Positions 24,627 to 36,087 of a stretch of DNA of 36,480 bases are shown here, piece after piece (position 1 is the stretch's first letter; each line of letters starts with the position of its first letter). The stretch is from Burkholderiales bacterium. GTDB taxonomy: Bacteria; Pseudomonadota; Gammaproteobacteria; Burkholderiales; SG8-41. The notes under the pieces are model-generated. The model saw nothing but the letters and a program-made list of their open reading frames with translations, searched no databases and had not been told where the DNA came from. Where the stretch lies: contig JBILYA010000001.1 in the NCBI GenBank assembly GCA_044378065.1, forward strand, positions 1 through 36,480. Direction: 5' to 3'. The translations under genes were made by a program, and so were the position numbers.

Positions 24627-25532
24627 TCAGCTCTTGTCGCGCTTGAACAGCGCGTCGAGCTTTTGTTCGTAATCGTGATAGTCGAGGTAGTCGTAAAGAT
24701 CATCACGCGACTGCATCAGGTCGACCACGTTTTTCTGGTGACCGTCCTTGCGGATGTGCTGGTAAACCTTCAGCGCTGCGGCATTGGCGGCGCGCCATGC
24801 TGACAGCGGATACAGCGCCAAGCCGACATTCGCGCTGGCCAGTTCCTCAATCGTGAACAGCGGCGTCTTGCCAAACTCGGTGATGTTGGCGAGGATCGGC
24901 ACCTTCACCGCATCGGCGAATTTTTTGTACATCGGCAGATCGGTGATCGCTTCCGGGAAAATCATGTCGGCGCCGGCTTCGACGCAGGCCACGGCGCGTT
25001 CAATCGCGGCGTCCAGCCCTTCGATCGCCAGCGAATCGGTGCGGGCGATGATGACAAAGTTGGAATCGGTCTTGGCATCGGCAGAAGCCTTGATGCGGTC
25101 AACCATCTCGTCCTTGCTGACGATTTCCTTGTTGGGACGGTGACCGCAGCGTTTCTGCATGACCTGGTCTTCGATGTGCATCGCCGCGGCGCCGAACTTG
25201 ATCAGCGATTTGACGGTGCGGGCGATATTGAAAGCGCCGCCGAAACCGGTGTCGACGTCGACCAGCAGCGGCAGATCGCAGACATCGGTAATGCGACGAA
25301 CGTCGGTCAGCACATCGTCCAGCGTGGAGATCGCCAGATCCGGCACGCCCAGCGAGCCCGCGGCGACACCGCCGCCGGACAGGTAGATGGCCTTGAAGCC
25401 GCTGCGCTTGGCAAGCCGCGCGTGATAGGCATTGATCGCACCGACGATCTGCAGCGGTTTTTCAGCGGCGAGGGCGGCACGGAAACGGGCGCCGGCCGAA
25501 TCGGGGACGCTGGTTTTGGAACGATCGGTCAT
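24627..25532 (-). CDS. prpB: 2-methylisocitrate lyase-like enzyme (isocitrate lyase / PEP mutase superfamily, PrpB-like)
   Basis: 301 aa counted from ATG 25532, with the SD AGGAG 8 nt upstream. Long stretches match my recollection of E. coli PrpB: [86 protein letters not shown]. Confidence 0.85.
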
Positions 25533-25718
25533 GAACAAAGCTCCTGTAGAAATAAAGATGGCAGCCTGCGCTGCCGGAATTGAATTTTGGGTTTGCGGTG
25601 AATCGGTAAAGTAAAAAGTAAGTGACGGTCAGACAGTCCGATCAAATTCCGGGATGGCGGCAGGGATTTTAGCGGCTTCTGCCCGGCCGGCCGGGCTAGG
25701 GGCGGGCCATCCGGCACC

Positions 25719-25852: not shown

Positions 25853-26662
25853 ATGGCCATGGCAAATAATTCCGGCGACGATTCACAAGGTCGCCTCACC
25901 GGTACCCAAAGTATTGAGCGCGCGCTGCTGCTGCTCCGCGAGATCGCCGCGCATAATCGCGCGGGCTCCCGCCTGCTGGATCTGGCGACACGCACCAACC
26001 TGCAACGGCCGACCGTGCATCGCATGTTGAAGTGCCTGGCTCACGAAGGCATGGTGCAGCAGGATTCGGAAACCCACCGTTATTTCCTCGGCCCCATGGC
26101 TTTCGAGCTGGGTCTGACCGCGGCACCCCGCTTCAACCTGCGCGAAATCTGTCATCCGGCGATGACGCGCATCGCCGAAGCGACCGGTGACACGGTGTTC
26201 CTGACCCAGCGCAGCGGTCTCGATGCGGTATGCATCGACCGTCACGAAGGCACCTTCCCGATCAAAACCTTCACCCTGGAAGTCGGCATGCGCCGGCCGC
26301 TGGGCGTCGGCACCGGCAGCCTCGCCATTCTGGCCGCGCTTCCGGAAGATGAGTTCAAAGGCATCATCACCAGCAACGAACCGCGCCTGCAGGAGCACGG
26401 CCTCAACGGCCCGACGCTGATGTCGCAGGCGCGCAAGGCGCAAAAGCTGGGTTACGCCGTTCGTGAAACGCCGACGCTGGCAGGAGTACGTTCGATCGGT
26501 CAGGCGCTGCGCAACCAGAGCGGCGTGCCGTTCGCGTCGCTGTCGATTTCGGCAATTTCCAGCCGCATGGCCGACCGCCGCGTGCAGGAACTGGCAACCA
26601 TCCTGCGCAATGAAGCCCGCCTGATCGAGCGCCAGATCGCCAACGGCATGGAAATCCGCTGA
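25853..26662 (+). CDS. IclR-family transcriptional regulator
   Basis: 269 aa. The N-terminal winged HTH is SIERALLLLREIA...LLDLATRTNLQRPTVHRMLKCL and the C-terminal effector domain is GVGTGSLAILAALP ... GYAV ... ASLSISA. Confidence 0.85.
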   Translation: MAMANNSGDDSQGRLTGTQSIERALLLLREIAAHNRAGSRLLDLATRTNLQRPTVHRMLKCLAHEGMVQQDSETHRYFLGPMAFELGLTAAPRFNLREICHPAMTRIAEATGDTVFLTQRSGLDAVCIDRHEGTFPIKTFTLEVGMRRPLGVGTGSLAILAALPEDEFKGIITSNEPRLQEHGLNGPTLMSQARKAQKLGYAVRETPTLAGVRSIGQALRNQSGVPFASLSISAISSRMADRRVQELATILRNEARLIERQIANGMEIR

Positions 26663-26719: not shown

Positions 26720-27685
26720 ATGAGAATACTGTCGCGCACACTCGTCGCACTGCTGCTCGCCGTCTGTGCGGGCGGTGTTTACGCGCAAGCCTGGCCGTCC
26801 AAACCGATCCGCTTTGTCGTTCCTTATCCGCCCGGCGGCAGCAATGATGTGCTGACACGCATCACCGCGCAGGCGATGGCCCCGGGCCTCGGTCAGCAGA
26901 TCGTCATCGACAATCGCGGCGGTGCCGGCGGCATGATCGGCGCCGATCACGTCGCGAAGTCGGCACCCGACGGCTACACCATCGTCAACGTGCAGGCGTC
27001 GTTCACCGCCAATGCCGCATTGCGCCAGAAAATGGCCTACGACCCGATGGCTGACTTCGCCTATATCGGCATGATGGCGCGCGGCCCCCTGCTTGCCGTG
27101 GTCCATCCCTCGCTGCCGGTGAAAAACATCCGCGAACTGATCGCGCTGGCCAAGGCCAAGCCCGGCCAGATCAACTACGGCTCGACCGGTACGGGCGGCC
27201 ACAATCACATGGCCACTGAACTGTTCAAGCGCATGGCCAATATCAATATCGTGCATGTGCCTTACAAAGGCGTTGCCCCTGCGTTGACCGATCTGATGGG
27301 CGGCCATACGCAAATGGTGATGACCAGTCTGCCCTCGGCGATGACATCGGTGCAGGCCGGACGCCTGAAAGCGCTCGCCGTCGGCAGTGAAACTCGTTCC
27401 GGATTCATGCCGGAACTGCCAACCATCGCCGAATCCGGCGTGCCCGGTTACATGGCTGAATTCTGGTGGGGCCTCGCCGCACCGGCAAAAACGCCGAATG
27501 ACATCATCAACCGCCTCGCCACCGAGCTGACCAGGGCCCTGCAGTCCCCGGACCTGAAACAGAAGTTCGCCGGCGAAGGCTCCGAACCCAGCGTAATGTC
27601 GCGCGAACAGTTCACCAAATTCGTCAATAACGAGATCGTGCGCTGGCGCAAAGTTGCGCAGGACTCCAATATCAAGCCGGAGTAA
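26720..27685 (+). CDS. Bug-family (TctC-like) tripartite tricarboxylate transporter substrate-binding protein, copy 1
   Basis: 321 aa with a signal peptide (LVALLLAVCAGGVYAQA) and Bug hallmarks: WPSKPIRFVVPYPPGGSNDV, DNRGGAGG, HVPYKG. The SD GAGGAGAG lies upstream. Confidence 0.9.
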   Translation: MRILSRTLVALLLAVCAGGVYAQAWPSKPIRFVVPYPPGGSNDVLTRITAQAMAPGLGQQIVIDNRGGAGGMIGADHVAKSAPDGYTIVNVQASFTANAALRQKMAYDPMADFAYIGMMARGPLLAVVHPSLPVKNIRELIALAKAKPGQINYGSTGTGGHNHMATELFKRMANINIVHVPYKGVAPALTDLMGGHTQMVMTSLPSAMTSVQAGRLKALAVGSETRSGFMPELPTIAESGVPGYMAEFWWGLAAPAKTPNDIINRLATELTRALQSPDLKQKFAGEGSEPSVMSREQFTKFVNNEIVRWRKVAQDSNIKPE

Positions 27686-27755: not shown

Positions 27756-28742
27756 ATGATCCGCCGCCCCGTTTTGCCTGTCGCACTGTCCCTGCTGTCA
27801 GCCGCCGTACTGATCGCCTGCGCGATGCCCGCTTCAGCACAGCAAAGCTATCCTTCCAAAACCATCCGCTTCCTCGTCGGCGCGCCGCCCGGCGGCAGCA
27901 ATGATCTTTTTGCACGCGCCATCGGCCAGCAGATGCAGCCGGCGATCGGGCAGCAGGTCATCGTCGATAACCGCCCCGGCGCGAACCAGATGATCGCCGC
28001 CGAGATCATGGCCAAATCGCCGCCGGACGGACACACGATCTACATCACCTCGACCTCGTTCACTACCGGTGCGGCGCTGCAGCCCAAACTACCCTTTGAT
28101 CCGGTCGCCGACGTCGCCGGCGTGACCATGGTCGGCCAGGGCCCACTGGTGTATGTGATCCATCCCTCACTGCCGGCCAAAAACATGAAAGAGCTGATCA
28201 CCATCGCCCGCGCCAAACCGGGTCAGCTCAATTTCACCTCGTCGGGCATCGGCGGCATCAACCACCTCGGCACCGAGGTGCTGTTGTCGATGGCGAAAAT
28301 CAACATGGTCCATGTGCCGCACAAGGGCATGTCGCCGGCGCTGACCGACCTGATGAGCGGTCAGGTGCAGGTGCTGCTGGTCAGTCTGCCTTCAGTGACC
28401 GGCCAGATGAAATCGGGACGCCTGCGCGCACTCGCGGTCAGCACCGCGAAGCGCACCGCGTTCATGCCGGAACTGCCGACGGTCGCCGAATCGGGCATAC
28501 CGGGTTATGACGTGTCGCTGTGGTGGGGCGTATTTGCCCCGGCGAAAACGCCGAAGCCGGTGATGGACCGCCTCAACACTGAGATCCATAAAGCCATGTC
28601 CTCGGAGGTGATGAAGCGACATTTCGCCGAGTTCGGCGCCGAAGCCGCACCGATGACACCGGATGCGTTCAGCGCGAAAGTTAAAACCGAGATCGACAAC
28701 TGGCGCAAAGTAATCCAGGCCGCCAACATCAAGGCCGAGTGA
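27756..28742 (+). CDS. Bug-family (TctC-like) substrate-binding protein, copy 2
   Basis: 328 aa with a signal peptide and the motifs YPSKTIRFLVGAPPGGSNDL, DNRPGAN and HVPHKG. It is roughly half identical to copy 1 by eye. SD CAGGAGAG. Confidence 0.9.
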   Translation: MIRRPVLPVALSLLSAAVLIACAMPASAQQSYPSKTIRFLVGAPPGGSNDLFARAIGQQMQPAIGQQVIVDNRPGANQMIAAEIMAKSPPDGHTIYITSTSFTTGAALQPKLPFDPVADVAGVTMVGQGPLVYVIHPSLPAKNMKELITIARAKPGQLNFTSSGIGGINHLGTEVLLSMAKINMVHVPHKGMSPALTDLMSGQVQVLLVSLPSVTGQMKSGRLRALAVSTAKRTAFMPELPTVAESGIPGYDVSLWWGVFAPAKTPKPVMDRLNTEIHKAMSSEVMKRHFAEFGAEAAPMTPDAFSAKVKTEIDNWRKVIQAANIKAE

Positions 28743-29992
28743 TGGCGACGCTCCCTCGCAGAAATTACCAGCCCGGCGCGAAAGGCACGCTGAACAGTGT
28801 GCGCGTGCTCGATCTGTCCCGACTGGTCGCCGGCAACATGCTGACGCAGTTCCTCGCCGACTTCGGTGCAGAAGTGATCAAGGTTGAACCGCCCGCCGGC
28901 GACACGCTGCGCGCCTGGAAAACCAAAGACGTCCAGATCAACTGGAAAATCTACGCCCGCAGCAAAAAAAGTCTGGGACTGGAACTGCGCAAAACCGAAG
29001 CGCGCGAGCTGCTGAAAAAGCTGATTCCGTCGGCACAGATCTTCATCGAGAGTTTCCGCCCCGGCACACTGGAAAAAATGGGCCTCGGCCCGAAAGAACT
29101 GCTGAAGCTGAATCCGCAACTGGTGATCGTGCGCATCTCCGGCTGGGGCCAGGAAGGCCCTTACAGCAAACGCCCAGGTTTCGGCACCTTGGTCGAAGGC
29201 ATGTCGGGCTTCGCCTCATTCAACGGATTTGCCGACCGCGAACCGGTACTGCCGCCGATGTATCTCGCCGACACCGTGGCCGGGCTTTACGGTGCAGCGG
29301 CAGTGATGACGGCCTTGCGTGAAGTCGAAGTCAACAAGGGCAAAGGTCAGATCATCGACCTGCCGCTGCTCGATCCGATGTTTGCGGTGCTCGGACCGCA
29401 GGCGGCCAACTTCCGGCTCACCGGCAAGGTGAAGCCGCGCACCGGCAGCCGCTCGACCAATGCCGGACCGCGCAATGCATACAAATGCAAGGATGGCCTG
29501 TTTGTCTGCCTGTCGTCATCGACGCAGAAAATGGCCGAGCGGCTGTTCCGCTCGATCGGCCACCCCGAATTCATCACCGATCCGCGTTACGCCACCAATG
29601 CCGAACGCGTGAAACATGCCGAAGAGCTCGATGCGGTGATCGGCGCTTTCATCGCGCAGCGCACGCAGGCCGAGAACGTCACCTTTTTTGAACAAGCGGA
29701 AGTCACCATCGGTCCGATCTACGACATCCGGCAGATTTTTGAAGACCCGCATTTCCTCGCACGCGAACTGCTTGCCGATTACCCCGACAACGACATGGAC
29801 AGCTTCCCGATGCACCATGTCGTGCCGCGCCTGTCGGGCACGCCGGGATCGATCCGCACTCCGGCGCCGCAACTGGGCGAGCATAACCTCGACCTCTTGC
29901 GCGAAGCGGGTGTCGATGACGAGGCTTATGCCAAACTGCTGGCCGCAGGCATCGCCTGCGCCGGCGATGCCGCCAAACCGGAAGAAGAATAA
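28742..29992 (+). CDS. family III (CaiB/BaiF/Frc-type) acyl-CoA transferase, copy 1
   Basis: 416 aa with the N-terminal signature VRVLDLSRLVAGNMLTQFLADFGAEVIKVEPPAGD. ATG 28742 overlaps the Bug2 stop (TGATG). Confidence 0.9.
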   Translation: MATLPRRNYQPGAKGTLNSVRVLDLSRLVAGNMLTQFLADFGAEVIKVEPPAGDTLRAWKTKDVQINWKIYARSKKSLGLELRKTEARELLKKLIPSAQIFIESFRPGTLEKMGLGPKELLKLNPQLVIVRISGWGQEGPYSKRPGFGTLVEGMSGFASFNGFADREPVLPPMYLADTVAGLYGAAAVMTALREVEVNKGKGQIIDLPLLDPMFAVLGPQAANFRLTGKVKPRTGSRSTNAGPRNAYKCKDGLFVCLSSSTQKMAERLFRSIGHPEFITDPRYATNAERVKHAEELDAVIGAFIAQRTQAENVTFFEQAEVTIGPIYDIRQIFEDPHFLARELLADYPDNDMDSFPMHHVVPRLSGTPGSIRTPAPQLGEHNLDLLREAGVDDEAYAKLLAAGIACAGDAAKPEEE

Positions 29993-30028: not shown

Positions 30029-30093
30029 GCCGAACTTGAATTTTTTTGTCCTTACTACTTTTGTATTTTTTTGATCACTGCGAAGGATGCCCC

Positions 30094-31002
30094 ATGTATC
30101 GTGAACTCCCCGTCTGGCGCTCGTTGATGTACGTCCCGGTCAACGTTGAAAAATTCGTCGACAAGGCCCACACCCGCGGCGCCGACGTGATCCAGCTCGA
30201 CATCGAAGACAGTGTGCCGCCGGCGGAAAAAGCCAATGCGCGCAAGCTGGTCGAGAAAAATGCGGCGCGCGTCAAACGCGGTGGCGCCGACGTCGTGGTG
30301 CGCATCAATCAGCCGCTGTCGCTCGCGGTGCGCGACATCGAAGAATCGATCTGCCCTGACGTCAACGGCATTGCCATCACCAAGGTGTCCGGCGTATCGC
30401 ATGTGCAGCTGCTCGACGAGTTGGTCAGCGAACTCGAACAGAAACGCGGCATGACCGTCGGCCACACCAAATTCATCGGCATGATCGAAACCCCGGAAGC
30501 GTTTTTCAAGATCCGCGAAATCACCACGGCGAGCAGCCGCATGGTCGCCTGCAATATCGGCGGCGAAGACTTCGCGCTGAACTGCAATATGCAGCCCACC
30601 GGCGAAGCGCTGTTCTACCCCAAGCAGCACATGGTCATCGCCGCCAATGCTGCGGGCATGATGCCGCTGGGTTTCATCGACAGCGTCGCCACCTTCGGCG
30701 ACTGGGAAAACTTCCGCAAGATGGTGCGCCGTTCGCGCGATTTCGGTTTCATGGGCGCGGGCTGCATCCATCCCGGTCAGGTCACCATCGTCAACGAGGA
30801 ATACAAACCGAGCACTGCCGAAGTGGAATACGCGCGCAAGGTCATCGCGCTGGATAAGGAAGCAGCCGCTGCGGGCCGCGGTTCGTTCGCGCTCGACGGC
30901 AAGATGATCGACATTCCGATCATCGTCCGCGCTGAACGCCTGCTCAAACGCTTTGAAGCCATCACGGCGCGCGAAGCGCAGACACTTGCGGCGATGAAGT
31001 AA
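30094..31002 (+). CDS. HpcH/HpaI aldolase / citrate lyase beta (CitE)-like acyl-CoA lyase (citramalyl-/malyl-CoA lyase type)
   Basis: 302 aa counted from ATG 30094, with the SD GAAGGA 6 nt upstream. It has the family pattern RSLMYVPVNVEKFVDKAHTRGADVIQLDIEDSV and later EDF and DGKMID motifs. Confidence 0.85.
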   Translation: MYRELPVWRSLMYVPVNVEKFVDKAHTRGADVIQLDIEDSVPPAEKANARKLVEKNAARVKRGGADVVVRINQPLSLAVRDIEESICPDVNGIAITKVSGVSHVQLLDELVSELEQKRGMTVGHTKFIGMIETPEAFFKIREITTASSRMVACNIGGEDFALNCNMQPTGEALFYPKQHMVIAANAAGMMPLGFIDSVATFGDWENFRKMVRRSRDFGFMGAGCIHPGQVTIVNEEYKPSTAEVEYARKVIALDKEAAAAGRGSFALDGKMIDIPIIVRAERLLKRFEAITAREAQTLAAMK

Positions 31003-31015
31003 GACTTTGCGGCCA

Positions 31016-31040
31016 CCGTGCGGGGCTCAACCCCGCACGG
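31016..31040 (+). terminator. strong GC hairpin between the lyase gene and Bug3 (attenuator, terminator or RNA-stabilising element)
   Basis: CCGTGCGGGG-ctcaa-CCCCGCACGG forms a perfect 10-bp stem, 13 nt after the lyase stop. The downstream tract CGATTCTCTTTC is only partly U-rich. Confidence 0.35.
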
Positions 31041-31115
31041 CGATTCTCTTTCAGCAGCACCTCGGCTAGGATGTGGCGTCGCGATGGCAATCCGCCATAT
31101 GCACGTGGAGGGGTT

Positions 31116-32087
31116 ATGAAAAATATTATTAAAATCAATGGTTTATTGTTTTCTGCGCTGATGCTCACGGCGCTGCCGGTGTATGCACAAACCGTGGCGA
31201 AATTTCCGGTCAAGCCGGTACGCATCATCGTCGCTTTCCCGCCGGGCAGTTCGACCGACATCGTCGCCCGTGTTGTCGGCGAACGCCTGACCGAAATCTG
31301 GGGCCACAACGTCATTGTTGAAAACCGTCCCGGGGCTTCGGGCAACATCGGCACCCAGGTCGCATTGCGCGCCAACCCCGACGGCCACACGCTGCTGATG
31401 AACAGTTCGGCAATTGCGGTCAACGTCAGCCTGTATTCAAAACCCGGTTATGCAATGAAGGACCTTGCGCCCATCCTGCAGGGCCCGACGACGCCCAACC
31501 TGATCACCGTCCATCCGTCGGTGAAAGCGAAAACGCTGCAGGAACTGATCGCGCTGGCGAAGACGACGCCGTTGAGCTACGGCTCTTCGGGCACCGGCAC
31601 CACGCCGCACCTCGATATGGAACTGCTGTTCAAGTCGCTGGCGAAAGTCGATATCACCCACGTGCCGTACAACCCGGCAGCGGCTGCCACCGCTGTGGTC
31701 GCCAACCAGGTGCCGGTGGGCTCGACGTCGATGCCGCCGGCCGTGCCCCATGTCAAAAGCGGCCGCCTGCGCGCCATTGCAGTGACCTCGGCGAAACGTT
31801 CAGGCGTGCTGCCGGATGTGCCGACGGTGGCTGAATCGGGTTTTCCGGGCTTTGATGACGGCACCTGGTTCTCGGTATTCGCACCAGCCGGGATTTCTGC
31901 CGCCGTGGTCAATCAGGTCAATCGCGACTTCAGCACGGCACTGCAGTCACCGGCGGCGAAAGAACGCCTGGCCGCGCTGTCGCTGGAATTCACACCGAAC
32001 ACGGCCGCTGAATTTGCCGCCCGCCTGAAAACAGAAGTCGACAAATACGCGCAGATCGTCAAGCAGTCCGGCGCACGGGTGGATTGA
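31116..32087 (+). CDS. Bug-family (TctC-like) substrate-binding protein, copy 3
   Basis: 323 aa counted from ATG 31116, with the SD GGAGGGG upstream. It has a signal peptide (LLFSALMLTALPVYAQ) and the motifs FPVKPVRIIVAFPPGSSTDI, ENRPGASG and HVPYNP. Confidence 0.9.
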   Translation: MKNIIKINGLLFSALMLTALPVYAQTVAKFPVKPVRIIVAFPPGSSTDIVARVVGERLTEIWGHNVIVENRPGASGNIGTQVALRANPDGHTLLMNSSAIAVNVSLYSKPGYAMKDLAPILQGPTTPNLITVHPSVKAKTLQELIALAKTTPLSYGSSGTGTTPHLDMELLFKSLAKVDITHVPYNPAAAATAVVANQVPVGSTSMPPAVPHVKSGRLRAIAVTSAKRSGVLPDVPTVAESGFPGFDDGTWFSVFAPAGISAAVVNQVNRDFSTALQSPAAKERLAALSLEFTPNTAAEFAARLKTEVDKYAQIVKQSGARVD

Positions 32088-32094
32088 CCGGCTC

Positions 32095-32946
32095 ATGCGC
32101 AACGTCAGTGAATCCAGCATCACGCAGGCAGTCGTCGCTTCTTTCGATGGCGCCACGGATCCGCGCTTTCGCCGGATCATTGAAAGCCTGACGCGCCACC
32201 TGCACGCCTTCGCACGCGAGGTTGACCTGACGCCGGAAGAATGGAAGGCCGGTATTGATTTTCTCTACCGCGCCGGACAGATTTCGGATGAAAAGCGCAA
32301 CGAATTCATCCTGACATCCGACGTGCTCGGCCTGTCCTCGCTGGTCGACATGCTGCAGAGCGACGCCGGCGCCACCGAACGCAGTGCATTGGGGCCTTTT
32401 CATTCCGAGGGTTCTCCGGCGCTCGCGGTGGGCGGTGATCTCAAGCAGGACAACGATGGCGAACCGCTGCTGGTACACGGCCGCGTGCTGGATGAAGACG
32501 GCAAGCCGGTTGCCGGCGCACAGCTCGATTTCTGGCAGGCCGCTGTCAACGGCAAATACTGGCAACAGGACCCGGCACAGGATCCGCACAACCTGCGTTT
32601 CCGCATGACCACCGGCGACGATGGCGTGTATGCGTTCACCACCGTGCAGCCCGCCCCGTACAGCGTGCCCTATGACGGTCCGGTCGGCGATCTGCTTCGC
32701 GCCGGCGGCCGCCACGCCTGGCGCCCGGCGCATTTTCATTTCATTGTCGGCGCACCTGGTTTCCGCCCGCTGACCACCGAGGTGTTTTTCTCCGGCGATC
32801 CCTATCTCGACAGCGACGCCATCTTCGGCGTTCGCGAGTCGCTGGTGGTCACGGTCGCCCCCAATACGGATGCAGCACTGGCGAAACGCTACAACCTGGC
32901 GTCGCCTTTTCTCAACGTGGCCTTCGACTTCCGCCTGGGCCGCTGA
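32095..32946 (+). CDS. intradiol ring-cleavage dioxygenase (catechol / hydroxyquinol 1,2-dioxygenase family)
   Basis: 283 aa. The N-terminal helical dimerisation segment is DPRFRRIIESLTRHLHAFAREVDLTPEEWKAGIDFL. The core has GPFH, LLVHGRVLDEDGKPVAGAQLDFWQA, GVYAFTTVQPAPYSVP and the Fe-ligand motif GRHAWRPAHFHF. Confidence 0.85.
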   Translation: MRNVSESSITQAVVASFDGATDPRFRRIIESLTRHLHAFAREVDLTPEEWKAGIDFLYRAGQISDEKRNEFILTSDVLGLSSLVDMLQSDAGATERSALGPFHSEGSPALAVGGDLKQDNDGEPLLVHGRVLDEDGKPVAGAQLDFWQAAVNGKYWQQDPAQDPHNLRFRMTTGDDGVYAFTTVQPAPYSVPYDGPVGDLLRAGGRHAWRPAHFHFIVGAPGFRPLTTEVFFSGDPYLDSDAIFGVRESLVVTVAPNTDAALAKRYNLASPFLNVAFDFRLGR

Positions 32947-33013
32947 ATCCGCACCGCGGGCACGCGGTGCCGTAAAATTGCAAATTCTCCTGTAACAACG
33001 AGGTTAGTGACGC

Positions 33014-33865
33014 ATGTCTGCAGAACTGGAATCCCTGAAGGAATGGATCGGCCGCACCGAAACCGCGATTGATTATGTGACCGTCCCCGCCGTCAACCGT
33101 CTGTCAGCGACCCTTGATCGCGACGATGCCTTCCCGAAAATGGGCGATCCGCTGCCGGTCGGCTGGCATTCCACCCTGTTCCCGCGCGTGGTACGCCATT
33201 CGCAGATCGGTCCCGACGGGCATCCGGCTCGCGGCGACTTCCTGCCGCCGGTACCGCTGCCGCGGCGCATGTTCGCCGGCAAGCGCACGACCTTCATCGC
33301 GCCGCTGCATATCGGCGACGAAGTGCACCGCCTGTCGACCATCCAGAACGTCACCATCAAGGACGGACGCAGCGGGCGCATGGTCTTCGTCACCGTGAAG
33401 ACCGACATCAAAAACGCCAAGGGCGTGGCGATCAGCGAGGAGCAGGACATCGTCTACCGCGGCGAGCCTGACAAGAATGCACCGCCGCCCCCGCCACAGC
33501 CCGCGCCGGGCAAGGCGGTGTGGCAGCACCAGGTCACGCCCGATCCGGTAATGCTATTCCGTTATTCCGCACTGACCTTCAACGGCCACCGCATTCATTA
33601 CGACCATCCTTATGTCACCGGCGTCGAGGGATATCCCAACCTGGTGATGAACGGCGGACTGACCACACTGCTGGTGTACGAACTGGCGCGCACCCATGCA
33701 TCGACACCGATCAGGTTCATGTCCTCGCGCAATGTGCGCGCCCTGTTCGTTGGCCGCACCATCACGCTTTGCGGTGAACCGTCGGCAGACAACAAGACGG
33801 CGAAGCTGTGGGCGCAGGATGACACCGGCGCGCTGGCGCTGACTGCCGAAGCGGAGTTCATCTAA
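33014..33865 (+). CDS. double-hotdog MaoC-like / FAS1-like (R)-specific enoyl-CoA hydratase-dehydratase family protein
   Basis: 283 aa in two halves joined by a Pro-rich linker (NAPPPPPQPAPG). The C-terminal half has FRYSALTFNGHRIHYD and NLVMNGGL, typical of MaoC/HTD2-type hydratases. Its size and architecture resemble itaconyl-/mesaconyl-CoA hydratases. Confidence 0.7.
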   Translation: MSAELESLKEWIGRTETAIDYVTVPAVNRLSATLDRDDAFPKMGDPLPVGWHSTLFPRVVRHSQIGPDGHPARGDFLPPVPLPRRMFAGKRTTFIAPLHIGDEVHRLSTIQNVTIKDGRSGRMVFVTVKTDIKNAKGVAISEEQDIVYRGEPDKNAPPPPPQPAPGKAVWQHQVTPDPVMLFRYSALTFNGHRIHYDHPYVTGVEGYPNLVMNGGLTTLLVYELARTHASTPIRFMSSRNVRALFVGRTITLCGEPSADNKTAKLWAQDDTGALALTAEAEFI

Positions 33866-35079
33866 TGGCCGGCGGTCCTCTCGAGGGAGTACGTATTGTC
33901 GACCTGACATCAGTCGTGGTCGGTCCGCTCGCGACGCAGATCCTCGCCGACCACGGTGCGGAAGTGATCAAGGTCGAAACCAAAAGCGGCGACCTGATCC
34001 GCCACATGAACGGCAAGTCGGTAACGCCGGGCATGGGCGCGAAATTCCTGCACCTCAATCGCAACAAGCGCTCGCTGGTGCTCGATCTGAAAAATCCCGC
34101 CGGTCACGCCGCGCTGATGAAGCTGATCGAAAAAGCCGACGTGCTGGTGTGGAACGTGCGGCCACCGGCGATGGCGCGACTCAAGCTGTCGTATGAGGAT
34201 GTGCGCAAGGTCAATCCCGGCATCATTTACTGCGGCATGTTCGGCTTCGGCCAGGATGGCCGTTATCGCGAGAAACCCGCTTACGACACCATCATCCAGG
34301 GTTCCGGCGGCATGGCGGCGCTGCATCACCGTGCGATGGGTGAACCGCGCTTCGTACCGATGGTGGTCGCCGACAAGACGGTCGGTCTGATTGCGGTGCA
34401 GATGATTGCGATGGCGCTGTACCGCAAGGCCAAAACCGGCGAAGGCTGCTCGATCGAGATTCCGATGTTCGAGAATCTGGTCAAGTTCGTGCTCGAAGAA
34501 CATATGTACCTGAAAACCTTCGACCCGCCGCTCGGTGAAACCGGTGATCCGCGCCTGCTGGATCCGCTGGGTAAGCCGATTCCGACCAAGGACAGCTATA
34601 TCTGCATCTCCGCCAACACCAATGATCAGGCCTTCGGCTTTTTTGATGTCATCGGCCGGCCGGAATTAAAAACCGATCCGCGCTTCAGCAGCGTACAGGC
34701 GCGTTTCGCCAATGTTGCCGCCTATTTCGAAGTGCGCATGGCTGCGCTGAAAAGCAAAACCACTGCAGAGTGGCTGGAACTGTTTGATGCGGCAGACGTG
34801 CCGGCGATGCCCTATCACACGCTCGACAGCGTGCTCGAAGATCCGCATCTGAAGGAAATCGGATTCTTCGAGATGAAAGACCATCCGACCGAAGGCCGCA
34901 CACGCAATATGCGACTGCCGAACAAATGGTCCTGTGGCGTGCGCGAAGGCTGGAATCCGGCGCCGAAACTCGGTGAGCAGAGCGTCGAGATTCTGCGTGA
35001 AGCCGGATTGTCCGAAGCCGAAATCCAGGCACTGCTCGATACCGGTGCCACCACCGACGGACGCATTAAAAAGACCTAA
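33865..35079 (+). CDS. family III (CaiB/BaiF/Frc-type) acyl-CoA transferase, copy 2
   Basis: 404 aa with the signature VRIVDLTSVVVGPLATQILADHGAEVIKVETKSGD. ATG 33865 overlaps the hydratase stop (TAATG). Confidence 0.9.
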   Translation: MAGGPLEGVRIVDLTSVVVGPLATQILADHGAEVIKVETKSGDLIRHMNGKSVTPGMGAKFLHLNRNKRSLVLDLKNPAGHAALMKLIEKADVLVWNVRPPAMARLKLSYEDVRKVNPGIIYCGMFGFGQDGRYREKPAYDTIIQGSGGMAALHHRAMGEPRFVPMVVADKTVGLIAVQMIAMALYRKAKTGEGCSIEIPMFENLVKFVLEEHMYLKTFDPPLGETGDPRLLDPLGKPIPTKDSYICISANTNDQAFGFFDVIGRPELKTDPRFSSVQARFANVAAYFEVRMAALKSKTTAEWLELFDAADVPAMPYHTLDSVLEDPHLKEIGFFEMKDHPTEGRTRNMRLPNKWSCGVREGWNPAPKLGEQSVEILREAGLSEAEIQALLDTGATTDGRIKKT

Positions 35080-35106: not shown

Positions 35107-36087
35107 TTGAATAATATCAAGTATTTAGCTTCTATCGTCCTGCTGGGTGTTTTGACAGTCGGAACGGCCCTGGCGCAGACCGCGGCCAACTTTCCGAACA
35201 AGCCCGTGCGTTTCATCGCCCCCTTCCCGCCGGGCGGCAGCACCGACACGCTGGCGCGACTGGTCTCCTTGCGGCTTTCCGAGATGTGGGGTCAACAGGT
35301 CGCCGTTGAAAACCGCGGCGGCGCCGGCGGCACTATCGGTGTCGAACTGGCGGCGCGCGCAGCGCCCGACGGTTACACCATCGTCATGGGCCATGTCGGC
35401 ACCTTCGGTTTCAATCCGACGCTGTATCCCAAACTGCCATACGACGCGATCAAGGATTTCGCGCCGATCACCATCCTTGCGACAGTGCCCAACGGCATGG
35501 CGGTGCATCCGTCACTGCCGGTCAAAACCGCGCGCGACTTTGTCGCTCTTGCTAAGTCCAAACCGGGTGAGCTGCTGTATGCCTCAGGCGGCAGCGGCAG
35601 CGCCTCGCATCTGGCCGGCGAATATTTCCGCCTGCTCACCAAGATCAATATGGTGCACGTACCGTACAAAGGCACCGGGCCGGCAATGATCAGCATGATT
35701 TCCGGACAGACCACGATGACCATCACCGGCATGGTCGCCCTGATGCCGCACGTCAAATCGAATCGCCTCAAACTGCTCGGTGTAGCGACGATGAAACGTC
35801 TCGCGATCCTGCCGGACGTGCCCACCATCAACGAAAGCGGCGTTCCGGGTTATGACGCCAATCAATGGTACGGCGTGCTGACGCAGGCAGCCGTGCCCCG
35901 CGACATCGTCGCCAAGCTGCATGCGGATATCGTCAAGGTACTGGCGCGGCCGGACATCAGGGAACGCCTCGCCGCCGACGGCGCAGAACCCGTCGCCAAT
36001 ACGCCCGATCAGTTCGCCGCGCACATCAAATCGGAGATTGCGCGCTGGGCACCGGTAGTCAAAGCCTCGGGCGCCAAACCGGACTGA
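35107..36087 (+). CDS. Bug-family (TctC-like) substrate-binding protein, copy 4
   Basis: 326 aa with a TTG start at 35107 and the SD AAGGAG 6 nt upstream. There is no nearby in-frame ATG. It has a signal peptide (IVLLGVLTVGTALAQ) and the motifs FPNKPVRFIAPFPPGGSTDT, ENRGGAGG and HVPYKG. Confidence 0.9.
   Translation: MNNIKYLASIVLLGVLTVGTALAQTAANFPNKPVRFIAPFPPGGSTDTLARLVSLRLSEMWGQQVAVENRGGAGGTIGVELAARAAPDGYTIVMGHVGTFGFNPTLYPKLPYDAIKDFAPITILATVPNGMAVHPSLPVKTARDFVALAKSKPGELLYASGGSGSASHLAGEYFRLLTKINMVHVPYKGTGPAMISMISGQTTMTITGMVALMPHVKSNRLKLLGVATMKRLAILPDVPTINESGVPGYDANQWYGVLTQAAVPRDIVAKLHADIVKVLARPDIRERLAADGAEPVANTPDQFAAHIKSEIARWAPVVKASGAKPD

Follow-up and report, generated by a model that had tools for sequence, protein, structure and literature searches.

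A hydroxyquinol-type dioxygenase gene, not linked to a maleylacetate reductase, lies among genes for CoA-ester metabolism in Burkholderiales

The first 36,480 nucleotides of contig JBILYA010000001.1 (assembly GCA_044378065.1, forward strand), which belong to a metagenome-assembled genome (MAG) of a Burkholderiales bacterium and are referred to below as the window, encode an Fe(III) intradiol ring-cleavage dioxygenase (DO; 32095..32946, + strand). As judged from Pfam, comparison with solved structures and residue alignment, this enzyme is very probably of the hydroxyquinol (benzene-1,2,4-triol) 1,2-dioxygenase type. It belongs to a clade at whose loci we found no maleylacetate reductase (MAR), and in the window's own subclade its gene, preceded by that of a periplasmic receptor, always lies with genes of CoA enzymes. 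We propose, with a probability of roughly 0.45 for the reading as a whole, that DO acts as a peripheral funnel into a CoA-dependent route for short dicarboxylates that existed before DO joined it, and is not the founding enzyme of that route. The protein itself is an ordinary new member of a known family; the interest lies in its gene context.

Results

Class of the dioxygenase

The DO reading frame contains no internal stops, and its product (283 residues) scored 161.4 bits against Dioxygenase_C (PF00775, cut-off 27.3) and 99.8 bits against Dioxygenase_N (PF04444, cut-off 27), with the motif GGRHAWRPAHFHF at residues 204–216. An earlier note on this DNA, made by reading the sequence without database searches, had seen the hallmarks of an intradiol dioxygenase in this protein, and these matches, the motif and the conserved ligands described below confirm it. 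The top matches among solved structures were nearly full length and of the hydroxyquinol type (PnpC, 3n9t, 260 bits; 1tmx, 237 bits; 8r2x, 231 bits), against at most 148 bits for catechol, 130 bits for chlorocatechol and 61 bits for protocatechuate dioxygenases. With E = 2e-76 against a solved hydroxyquinol dioxygenase and homologues numbering in the thousands, the match is far beyond chance. DO also stayed under every catechol and chlorocatechol NCBIfam equivalog cut-off, by a factor of two.

Alignment identified Y155, Y189, H213 and H215 as the Fe(III) ligands and R210 as an active-site residue. The four ligands were the top residue, with a frequency of 1.00, in the MAR-linked as well as in the MAR-less group of enzymes (see below), and R210 had a frequency of 0.99–1.00. 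Pocket positions, which we take to be those listed in the literature for 1tmx, were mapped onto DO via the alignment. Nine of them (L73, D76, L99, G100, P101, F102, P192, R210 and V246) were identical in the window's clade and in the MAR-linked enzymes, position 98 being A or V and position 191 V or I. The DO clade is marked by S97, by E229 (where MAR-linked enzymes have His) and by R247 (where they have Lys). Because the iron ligands and pocket positions match those of the MAR-linked relatives, the substrate is expected to be hydroxyquinol or a close analogue, possibly with an extra substituent on the ring.

A clade of dioxygenases without maleylacetate reductase

In the canonical branch, a hydroxylase and hydroxyquinol dioxygenase are followed by MAR, an iron-containing alcohol dehydrogenase (Fe-ADH), and then by PcaIJ and PcaF. 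We compared 80 named loci (48–98% DO identity) and additional metagenomic loci, with seven annotated plasmid loci as controls. Neighbouring open reading frames (ORFs) were clustered by all-against-all BLAST, recurrent clusters were labelled with Pfam and NCBIfam, and gene orders were tabulated. A tree of 95 rows (IQ-TREE quick search, LG+G4) was rooted on one catechol and one chlorocatechol dioxygenase. As an annotated MAR (PGAP) matched no NCBIfam MAR model, we searched for MAR with the Variovorax protein as query, which found true MARs at 52–68% identity.

Six plasmid dioxygenases (42–49% identity to DO), from Variovorax, Rhizobium, Agrobacterium, Roseomonas, Paracoccus and Sphingobium, had an annotated MAR gene adjacent or within a few kb, and all MAR-linked dioxygenases fell in one clade of 17 rows. 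The window's DO belonged to a separate clade of 71 rows (SH-aLRT 95), and the MAR query found no MAR neighbour at any of its 70 loci. The phylogenetic placement that the earlier note had proposed thus put DO in a MAR-less clade, separate from the MAR-linked enzymes; its hydroxyquinol type is indicated by the scores against solved structures (231–260 bits).

The absence extended beyond the neighbourhood of the gene. No MAR orthologue was found in 10 genomes carrying the DO clade, 4 of them from cultured isolates, which gave only Fe-ADHs of at most 35% identity. Because the source MAG is incomplete, we also searched more complete relatives. Three 99%-complete genomes of the same genus (G116, G162 and G205) gave no match, and a genome of the same family (G065) gave only weak Fe-ADH matches (27–37%). 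In all, 14 genomes bearing the DO clade were without a MAR orthologue, and the incomplete source MAG likewise gave no match. The lack of an orthologue in the genomes searched indicates that the DO clade operates in genomes without the textbook next enzyme, and the fate of the DO product is therefore probably independent of MAR.

A further genome of the same genus (G288) carried a MAR 68% identical to that of Variovorax (C260:505-1557) and a second dioxygenase, of 54% identity (C150:3658-4518). In G288, then, the canonical type of dioxygenase coexists with the MAR-less one.

Linkage of the dioxygenase gene to CoA modules

In the window, DO stands in a co-directional string (IclR, Bug1, Bug2, CoAT1, CitE-like lyase, Bug3, DO, hydratase, CoAT2, Bug4) in which we distinguish three modules, all on the + strand. 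Module A consists of a family III CoA-transferase (CoAT1, 28739..29992, assigned by Pfam/NCBIfam) and a CitE-like acyl-CoA lyase of the HpcH_HpaI fold (30046..31002), which is single-copy in the MAG. Module B consists of a double-hotdog (R)-type enoyl-CoA hydratase (Hyd, 33014..33865), homologous to itaconyl-CoA hydratase, and a second family III CoA-transferase (CoAT2, 33865..35079), which shares 1 nt with the end of the hydratase gene. Module C is formed by Bug3, a periplasmic receptor of the TctC family (31071..32087), and DO, whose dedicated partner it is. The Bug3 stop at 32087 is followed by the DO ATG at 32095, a gap of 7 nt, and Hyd starts 67 nt past the DO stop; the coordinates thus agree with the earlier note, which had placed the dioxygenase 7 nt after Bug3 and upstream of the hydratase/transferase pair.

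The window's DO falls in a 15-row subclade (64–98% DO identity; L013 is the closest named relative, at 98%), where the context always comprised a Bug receptor and CoA enzymes. Bug3 orthologues (56–86% identical, whereas identity to Bug paralogues of the same genome was ≤44%) stood directly upstream of DO throughout, and CoAT1 orthologues (58–76% identical) adjoined CitE whether or not DO was present. Five loci with a DO of 64–66% identity (L011 and L018–L021) allowed us to compare orthologues with paralogues. Identity to the window's protein was 62–64% for CoAT1 (transferase paralogues ≤37%), 74–75% for CitE (single copy), 56–58% for Bug3 (Bug paralogues ≤52%), 72–73% for the hydratase (one paralogue, 44%) and 69–70% for CoAT2 (one paralogue ≤50%, others ≤37%). 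The order in the 64–66% loci is Bug, CoAT1, CitE, a RutE-like reductase, Bug3 and DO, all co-directional; the reductase gene begins within 8 nt of the CitE stop, and Hyd and CoAT2 lie within 10 kb.

Of 301 genomes sampled from the order, 13 had DO at ≥61% identity, each of them together with a CitE orthologue. The distance between CitE and DO was 1–2 kb in nine of these genomes and 14.7 kb in G116; in the other three the two genes were on different small contigs. The spacer between CitE and Bug3, which in the window contains a strong hairpin (see below), had received a 13.7-kb defence island in G116 (L105:5205-18498), with both sides kept. The island codes for a type III restriction helicase subunit, a Schlafen/AlbA_2 protein, a DNA methylase, an OLD-family AAA/TOPRIM nuclease, a LexA-like S24 peptidase and a DUF5131 phage protein. 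Junctions varied by lineage (CitE/Bug3-DO, CitE/reductase-Bug3-DO, DO/Hyd, DO/Bug-PrpD-Bug-Hyd and DO/GGDEF), indicating that the proximity of DO to CoA genes survived rearrangement. Orthologous CoAT1-CitE-Bug3-DO blocks persisted over about 35% protein divergence and several rearrangements, and as CitE is single-copy, its adjacency to DO is not an effect of paralogue density. The comparison shows that Bug3-DO is a tight two-gene unit which, in uncultured freshwater Burkholderiales, is always docked to module A, module B or both.

The CoAT1-CitE and Hyd-CoAT2 pairs are likewise found in relatives whose genomes lack DO, and Bug3-DO, with or without the reductase, is therefore a facultative add-on docked to a pre-existing CoA pathway. 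In the DO-less genomes, a PrpB gene is divergent from an IclR or PrpD-like gene, which is followed by CoAT1 and CitE. The IclR orthologue heads CoAT1-CitE in one of these loci (L102), and Hyd and CoAT2 lie 5 kb from CoAT1-CitE in G077.

Two loci had features of their own. Downstream of DO, L011 (8329-10954), of the 65% subclade, encodes a family III CoA-transferase, a protein of the HMG-CoA-lyase family (308 bits, cut-off 246) and a glyoxalase/VOC protein. Locus L016 (CAZMBS010000184.1), filed as an 'uncultured Streptomycetaceae' MAG, carries a betaproteobacterial Bug-Bug-CoAT1-CitE-Bug3-DO string, 66–84% identical to the window's proteins; this placement is probably a binning error.

Other neighbours in the wider clade

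About 35 mostly alphaproteobacterial loci (e.g. L031, L038 and L041), roseobacters among them, share an operon encoding an FAH-family hydrolase, a nitroreductase-family protein, OsmC, DctP, DctQ, DctM and DO, with a GntR regulator and a YciI protein attached, and often with malonyl-CoA synthase (702 bits, cut-off 558) and malonyl-CoA decarboxylase. The nitroreductase-family protein corresponds to the NCBIfam 'malonic semialdehyde reductase' (RutE-like, NF003768), with 261–265 bits for a cut-off of 152, and its closest solved relative is IstO. This reductase was absent from the window, was not found in the source MAG and remained below the cut-off in five members of the family, four of them of the same genus. 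Some loci of the clade have an IPMS/homocitrate-synthase-like protein in place of FAH, and a Limnohabitans locus encodes Bug, FAH, DO and an FAD monooxygenase.

Neighbours within 5 kb of DO were counted at the 70 clade loci. FAH alone was found at 26, CitE alone at 12 and the IPMS-like protein alone at 10; 22 had none of the three, and no locus (0/70) had any two of them together. As the loci are mutually related, this exclusivity should be read as a pattern, without statistical weight; alternative downstream solutions would be expected to look like this. A gene for a carboxylate-type receptor or transporter stood directly upstream of DO at 43 of the 70 loci (Bug at 16, the last TRAP gene at 27), and most clade loci lacked a nearby hydroxylase or decarboxylase. 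We tried to derive the ligand of the relatives' TRAP receptor from solved structures and obtained only weak matches (≤63 bits).

We found nothing relevant in the literature on a hydroxyquinol dioxygenase with TRAP, nitroreductase, FAH and malonyl-CoA enzymes, so that the operon is apparently uncharacterised; nor did we find anything relevant on a CoA-dependent or malonate-yielding hydroxyquinol route or on IstO. For TcpB of the 2,4,6-trichlorophenol cluster, the description goes no further than 'similar to nitroreductases' (PMC3975901).

Other features of the window

Module A is headed by genes for an IclR regulator (25853-26662, +) and two TctC-family receptors, Bug1 (26720-27685, +) and Bug2 (27756-28742, +), and module B is followed by the TctC-family receptor Bug4 (35107..36087, +). 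Divergent from IclR are a gene for a PrpB-type methylisocitrate lyase (24627..25538, -; 539 bits, cut-off 353) and one for a D-2-hydroxyacid dehydrogenase. A PrpB-type lyase gene was also divergently paired with (IclR or PrpD-like)-CoAT1-CitE in the DO-less loci L102–L104 and L108; since the pairing is kept without DO, the PrpB-type gene belongs to the CoA module and not to a methylcitrate cycle operon.

A Pfam/NCBIfam scan of the 31 ORFs of the window gave no muconate cycloisomerase, muconolactone isomerase, MAR of the Fe-ADH type, aromatic hydroxylase or enol-lactonase, and the classical partners are thus missing, as the earlier note had said. The closest solved relative of the hydratase was the itaconyl-CoA hydratase of P. 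aeruginosa (8khg; 197 bits over residues 9–281), which establishes homology only. For the CitE-like lyase, the best solved matches were malyl-CoA and beta-methylmalyl-CoA lyases (110–126 bits), PaCcl giving only 84 bits. The lyase reached no NCBIfam equivalog and scored 121 bits with that for RipC/Ccl (NF038242, cut-off 375). We also looked for the ligand of Bug3 among solved TctC-family receptors. Bug3, Bug1 and Bug4 all matched Bug27, the terephthalate-binding protein and 2dvz, and this attempt failed because Bug1 and Bug4 outscored Bug3 on the same receptors.

A GC-rich hairpin with a 10-bp stem and a weak T tail (31016..31040, +; dG −25.1 kcal/mol, z −3.55) lies between CitE and Bug3 and is possibly an attenuator or a module boundary. 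An 8-bp GC hairpin without T tail directly follows the DO stop (32951-32970); its z of −1.8 is not significant alone. Four RNA libraries from fresh water or rivers yielded contigs that spanned the CitE/Bug3, Bug3/DO, DO/Hyd and Hyd/CoAT2 junctions, the one over Bug3/DO matching 221 nt with 0 mismatches. This is weak evidence, as such contigs have neither strand nor transcript ends, may stem from DNA carry-over and cannot prove a single transcript.

Gene content of the source MAG

Judged by its closest named relatives, the source MAG (2.5 Mb, 437 contigs, 70% complete) is that of an uncultured betaproteobacterium from fresh water; it has one intradiol dioxygenase and 18 family III CoA-transferase matches. 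It also gave 146 matches to the TctC/Bug family (about 1 per 17 kb), an extreme expansion for such a small genome. The search of the rest of the genome for cat/pca genes that the earlier note had suggested had a mixed outcome. No muconolactone isomerase was found in this 70%-complete MAG, and a PcaD-like match (246 bits) was just below the cut-off of 256; a PcaI/ScoA-family match was above its cut-off, and a PcaF-like thiolase was present at 55% identity. An Fe-ADH encoded elsewhere in the MAG was considered as a MAR and rejected, as it is not MAR-like.

Discussion

Proposed route

According to our proposal, Bug3 would capture an acidic hydroxyquinol-type aromatic compound, which would be taken up, and DO would open its ring to give an unsaturated dicarboxylate of the maleylacetate type. 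Instead of being reduced to 3-oxoadipate, this fission product would be taken over, as a CoA thioester, by the neighbouring dicarboxylate pathway. There, a CoA-transferase would form the thioester, the enoyl-CoA would be hydrated, and the CitE-like lyase would split it in a retro-Claisen reaction into acetyl-CoA and a C4 oxo compound. CoA activation, hydration and CitE cleavage of maleylacetate is the chemistry that we infer; that the product takes a CoA route through these particular neighbours is a tentative suggestion, to which we give somewhat less than even odds. Other chemistries were considered, among which the sequence cannot choose: cleavage of maleylacetate to glyoxylate and acetoacetate, of 2,4-dioxoadipate to malonate and pyruvate, or of 4-hydroxy-2-oxoadipate to malonic semialdehyde and pyruvate, and conversion of maleyl-CoA to malyl-CoA. 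The earlier note had speculated on a CoA-dependent fate for the product as an alternative to the beta-ketoadipate route. Gene linkage agrees with this in part; the CoAT1-CitE and Hyd-CoAT2 pairs are not peculiar to DO.

A broader version would have the dioxygenases of this clade of aquatic Alpha- and Betaproteobacteria feed a lower pathway without MAR or 3-oxoadipate, the product being cut by one of three interchangeable devices: the FAH-type hydrolase with malonate/malonic-semialdehyde enzymes, the IPMS-like lyase/synthase or, as in the window, CoA transfer, hydration and CitE cleavage. Taken jointly, the clade-wide route and its three devices are a rather doubtful proposition.

Weighing of the alternatives

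Several points weigh against our proposal. CitE orthologues (69–77% identity) are present in at least 7 genomes of the 301-genome sample that have no such dioxygenase, and since modules A and B exist without DO, they must have a substrate of their own and were not built for its product. The hydratase resembles itaconyl-CoA hydratase and the lyase malyl-CoA lyases, so that A and B could together form a complete itaconate/malate-type route for which no ring cleavage is needed. Known CitE-type lyases cleave 3-hydroxyacyl-CoAs that bear a carboxylate at C3 (malyl-, citramalyl- and citryl-CoA), and it is a weak point that hydrated maleylacetyl-CoA has a ketone, not a carboxylate, in this position. 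The hairpins on both sides of Bug3-DO, strong after CitE and weaker after DO, suggest that this pair may be a separate transcript. The window has no hydroxylase that would make a triol, and the MAG's match to the relatives' FAD monooxygenase is only 27%. Finally, this genome has 146 TctC and about 16 family III transferase genes in 2.5 Mb, which makes adjacency by chance likelier. Most of these points would also fit an arrangement in which Bug3-DO is a self-contained unit for uptake and cleavage that lies beside an itaconate/C5-dicarboxylate CoA pathway (A and B) without feeding it. Unlinked enzymes would then handle its product, for instance a reductase that has escaped recognition and, after it, the ScoA/PcaI-like transferase and PcaF-like thiolase that the genome encodes at other sites. 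That IclR and PrpB orthologues go with module A and not with DO, and that the CitE/Bug3 spacer of G116 took up a mobile island without loss of either side, would agree with such independence. Against it, the CitE orthologue is kept in all 13 genomes with DO and stands beside DO in at least 10 despite different junctions, an adjacency for which the single-copy CitE leaves no paralogue-density explanation. The RutE-like reductase, which is the conserved partner of DO in the 64–66% subclade, starts almost immediately after CitE in one co-directional string, and the search of 14 genomes gave no MAR orthologue. We therefore regard independent neighbours, with a product handled elsewhere, as rather unlikely.

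The difficulty with the CitE carboxylate would vanish if the ring substrate kept a carboxyl group. An imported carboxylated triol or catechol would give a tricarboxylate of the 3-carboxy-muconate type, which would end as acetyl-CoA and a 2-oxo-diacid; its CoA ester would correspond directly to mesaconyl-C4-CoA, which would let both the hydratase and the CitE-like lyase use their native chemistry. The carboxylate-type receptor gene that precedes DO at 43/70 loci, the scarcity of nearby hydroxylases and decarboxylases, the kinship of CitE to malyl/beta-methylmalyl-CoA lyases and of the hydratase to itaconyl-CoA hydratase, and the clade-specific E229 and R247 beside pocket positions would suit such a substrate. 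We nevertheless consider it improbable, given that the known hydroxyquinol-dioxygenase pocket positions are the same as in MAR-linked enzymes and that protocatechuate dioxygenases are far more distant. Besides, importers of the Bug or ABC kind are found at MAR-linked loci as well, and hydroxyquinol is made there by a decarboxylating monooxygenase. A protective role, in which DO would remove auto-oxidising triols or hydroxyquinones (e.g. photochemical products in surface water) without supporting growth, its product being lost or metabolised unspecifically, appears very improbable to us. The hosts are indeed aquatic bacteria, and in the wider clade the companions of DO are typical of redox-stress chemistry: a flavoprotein of the nitroreductase family, a peroxiredoxin-like protein of the OsmC type and a member of the YciI family. 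However, OsmC, YciI and the reductase are lacking as partners in the window's genus; the operon's own dedicated high-affinity receptor or transporter suggests that uptake is deliberate, and neighbours such as malonyl-CoA synthase/decarboxylase, FAH, IPMS-like proteins or CitE argue for recovery of carbon.

Significance

As an intermediate, hydroxyquinol occupies a central position in the degradation of resorcinol, nitrophenols, chlorophenols and lignin-derived aromatics, and to our knowledge, as far as we could find, every characterised route from it runs via MAR and 3-oxoadipate. We found no description in the literature of a MAR-less context for a hydroxyquinol dioxygenase with three exclusive neighbours. 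What is new here is a variant of the hydroxyquinol pathway context, with MAR absent clade-wide and three mutually exclusive neighbours in its place. That such a clade is carried by many bacteria of fresh water and the sea indicates that knowledge of this pathway has a gap, and genome annotation would now score its carriers as having an 'incomplete pathway'. The findings hint at an undescribed way of finishing aromatic breakdown, which, if true, would be a new lower pathway for aromatics of the benzenetriol type. As the DO clade has cultured carriers (Limnohabitans radicicola JUR4, Sulfitobacter sp. AS92, Halocynthiibacter halioticoli Z654 and Pacificitalea manganoxidans DY25), the question is directly testable.

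Comparison with known systems

DO shares its two-domain architecture, Fe(III) ligands and pocket positions with PnpC of P. putida DLL-E4 (3n9t), the Nocardioides simplex enzyme (1tmx) and 6-chlorohydroxyquinol 1,2-dioxygenase (8r2x), though its identity to these solved enzymes, which are themselves not in the tree, is only about 50%. The same ring cleavage is expected in the canonical hydroxyquinol branch of the beta-ketoadipate pathway, as found on the Variovorax, Rhizobium, Agrobacterium, Roseomonas, Paracoccus and Sphingobium plasmids, and canonical loci too have importer genes, including Bug receptors, beside the dioxygenase. The window differs from them in having no adjacent MAR and no hydroxylase in the cluster, and CoA-transferases, a CitE-like lyase and a MaoC-type hydratase instead.

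The earlier note had drawn a parallel with the P. aeruginosa itaconate operon, which also carries a gene annotated as a dioxygenase, and had suggested that the association with CoA enzymes may recur. It does recur, as orthologous blocks in relatives of the window. The Pseudomonas case is a coincidence of names: PA0880, named 'ring-cleaving dioxygenase', is a 2-hydroxyparaconate lactonase of 127 residues (PMC9875883), so that the analogy is nominal only. As a reference for the CoA enzymes, the P. aeruginosa itaconate/methylsuccinate cluster PA0878-PA0883 (Ict, Ich, Ccl, a PrpD-like protein, an acyl-CoA dehydrogenase and PA0880) shares with the window a family III CoA-transferase, an Ich-like double-hotdog hydratase and a CitE-like lyase, and PrpD-like genes occur nearby in the window's relatives. 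In contrast to that cluster, the window has a lyase that fails the RipC/Ccl equivalog and is closer to malyl-CoA lyases, two transferases, four Bug receptors and a true intradiol dioxygenase. The malyl-, beta-methylmalyl- and citramalyl-CoA lyase systems with mesaconyl-CoA hydratase and family III CoA-transferases comprise the same enzyme families, in the same combination, as the window, although the scores of its lyase with them are low. Those of the 3-hydroxypropionate bi-cycle and the ethylmalonyl-CoA pathway act on C4/C5 acids, and we know of no link between malyl-CoA-type lyase systems and ring cleavage.

The wider clade offers its own comparison in the operon of P. manganoxidans plasmid pDY25-C (L093:1058-10611), which encodes an FAH-family hydrolase, the RutE-like reductase, a TRAP transporter, DO, GntR, YciI, and malonyl-CoA synthase and decarboxylase. 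Alphaproteobacterial operons of this kind resemble the window in that they have a dioxygenase of the same clade (48–60% identity), carboxylate-type uptake directly upstream and no MAR. The window, unlike them, has none of FAH, RutE-like reductase, OsmC, YciI or TRAP; here, CoAT1 and CitE hold the place that is taken elsewhere by FAH or the IPMS-like enzyme.

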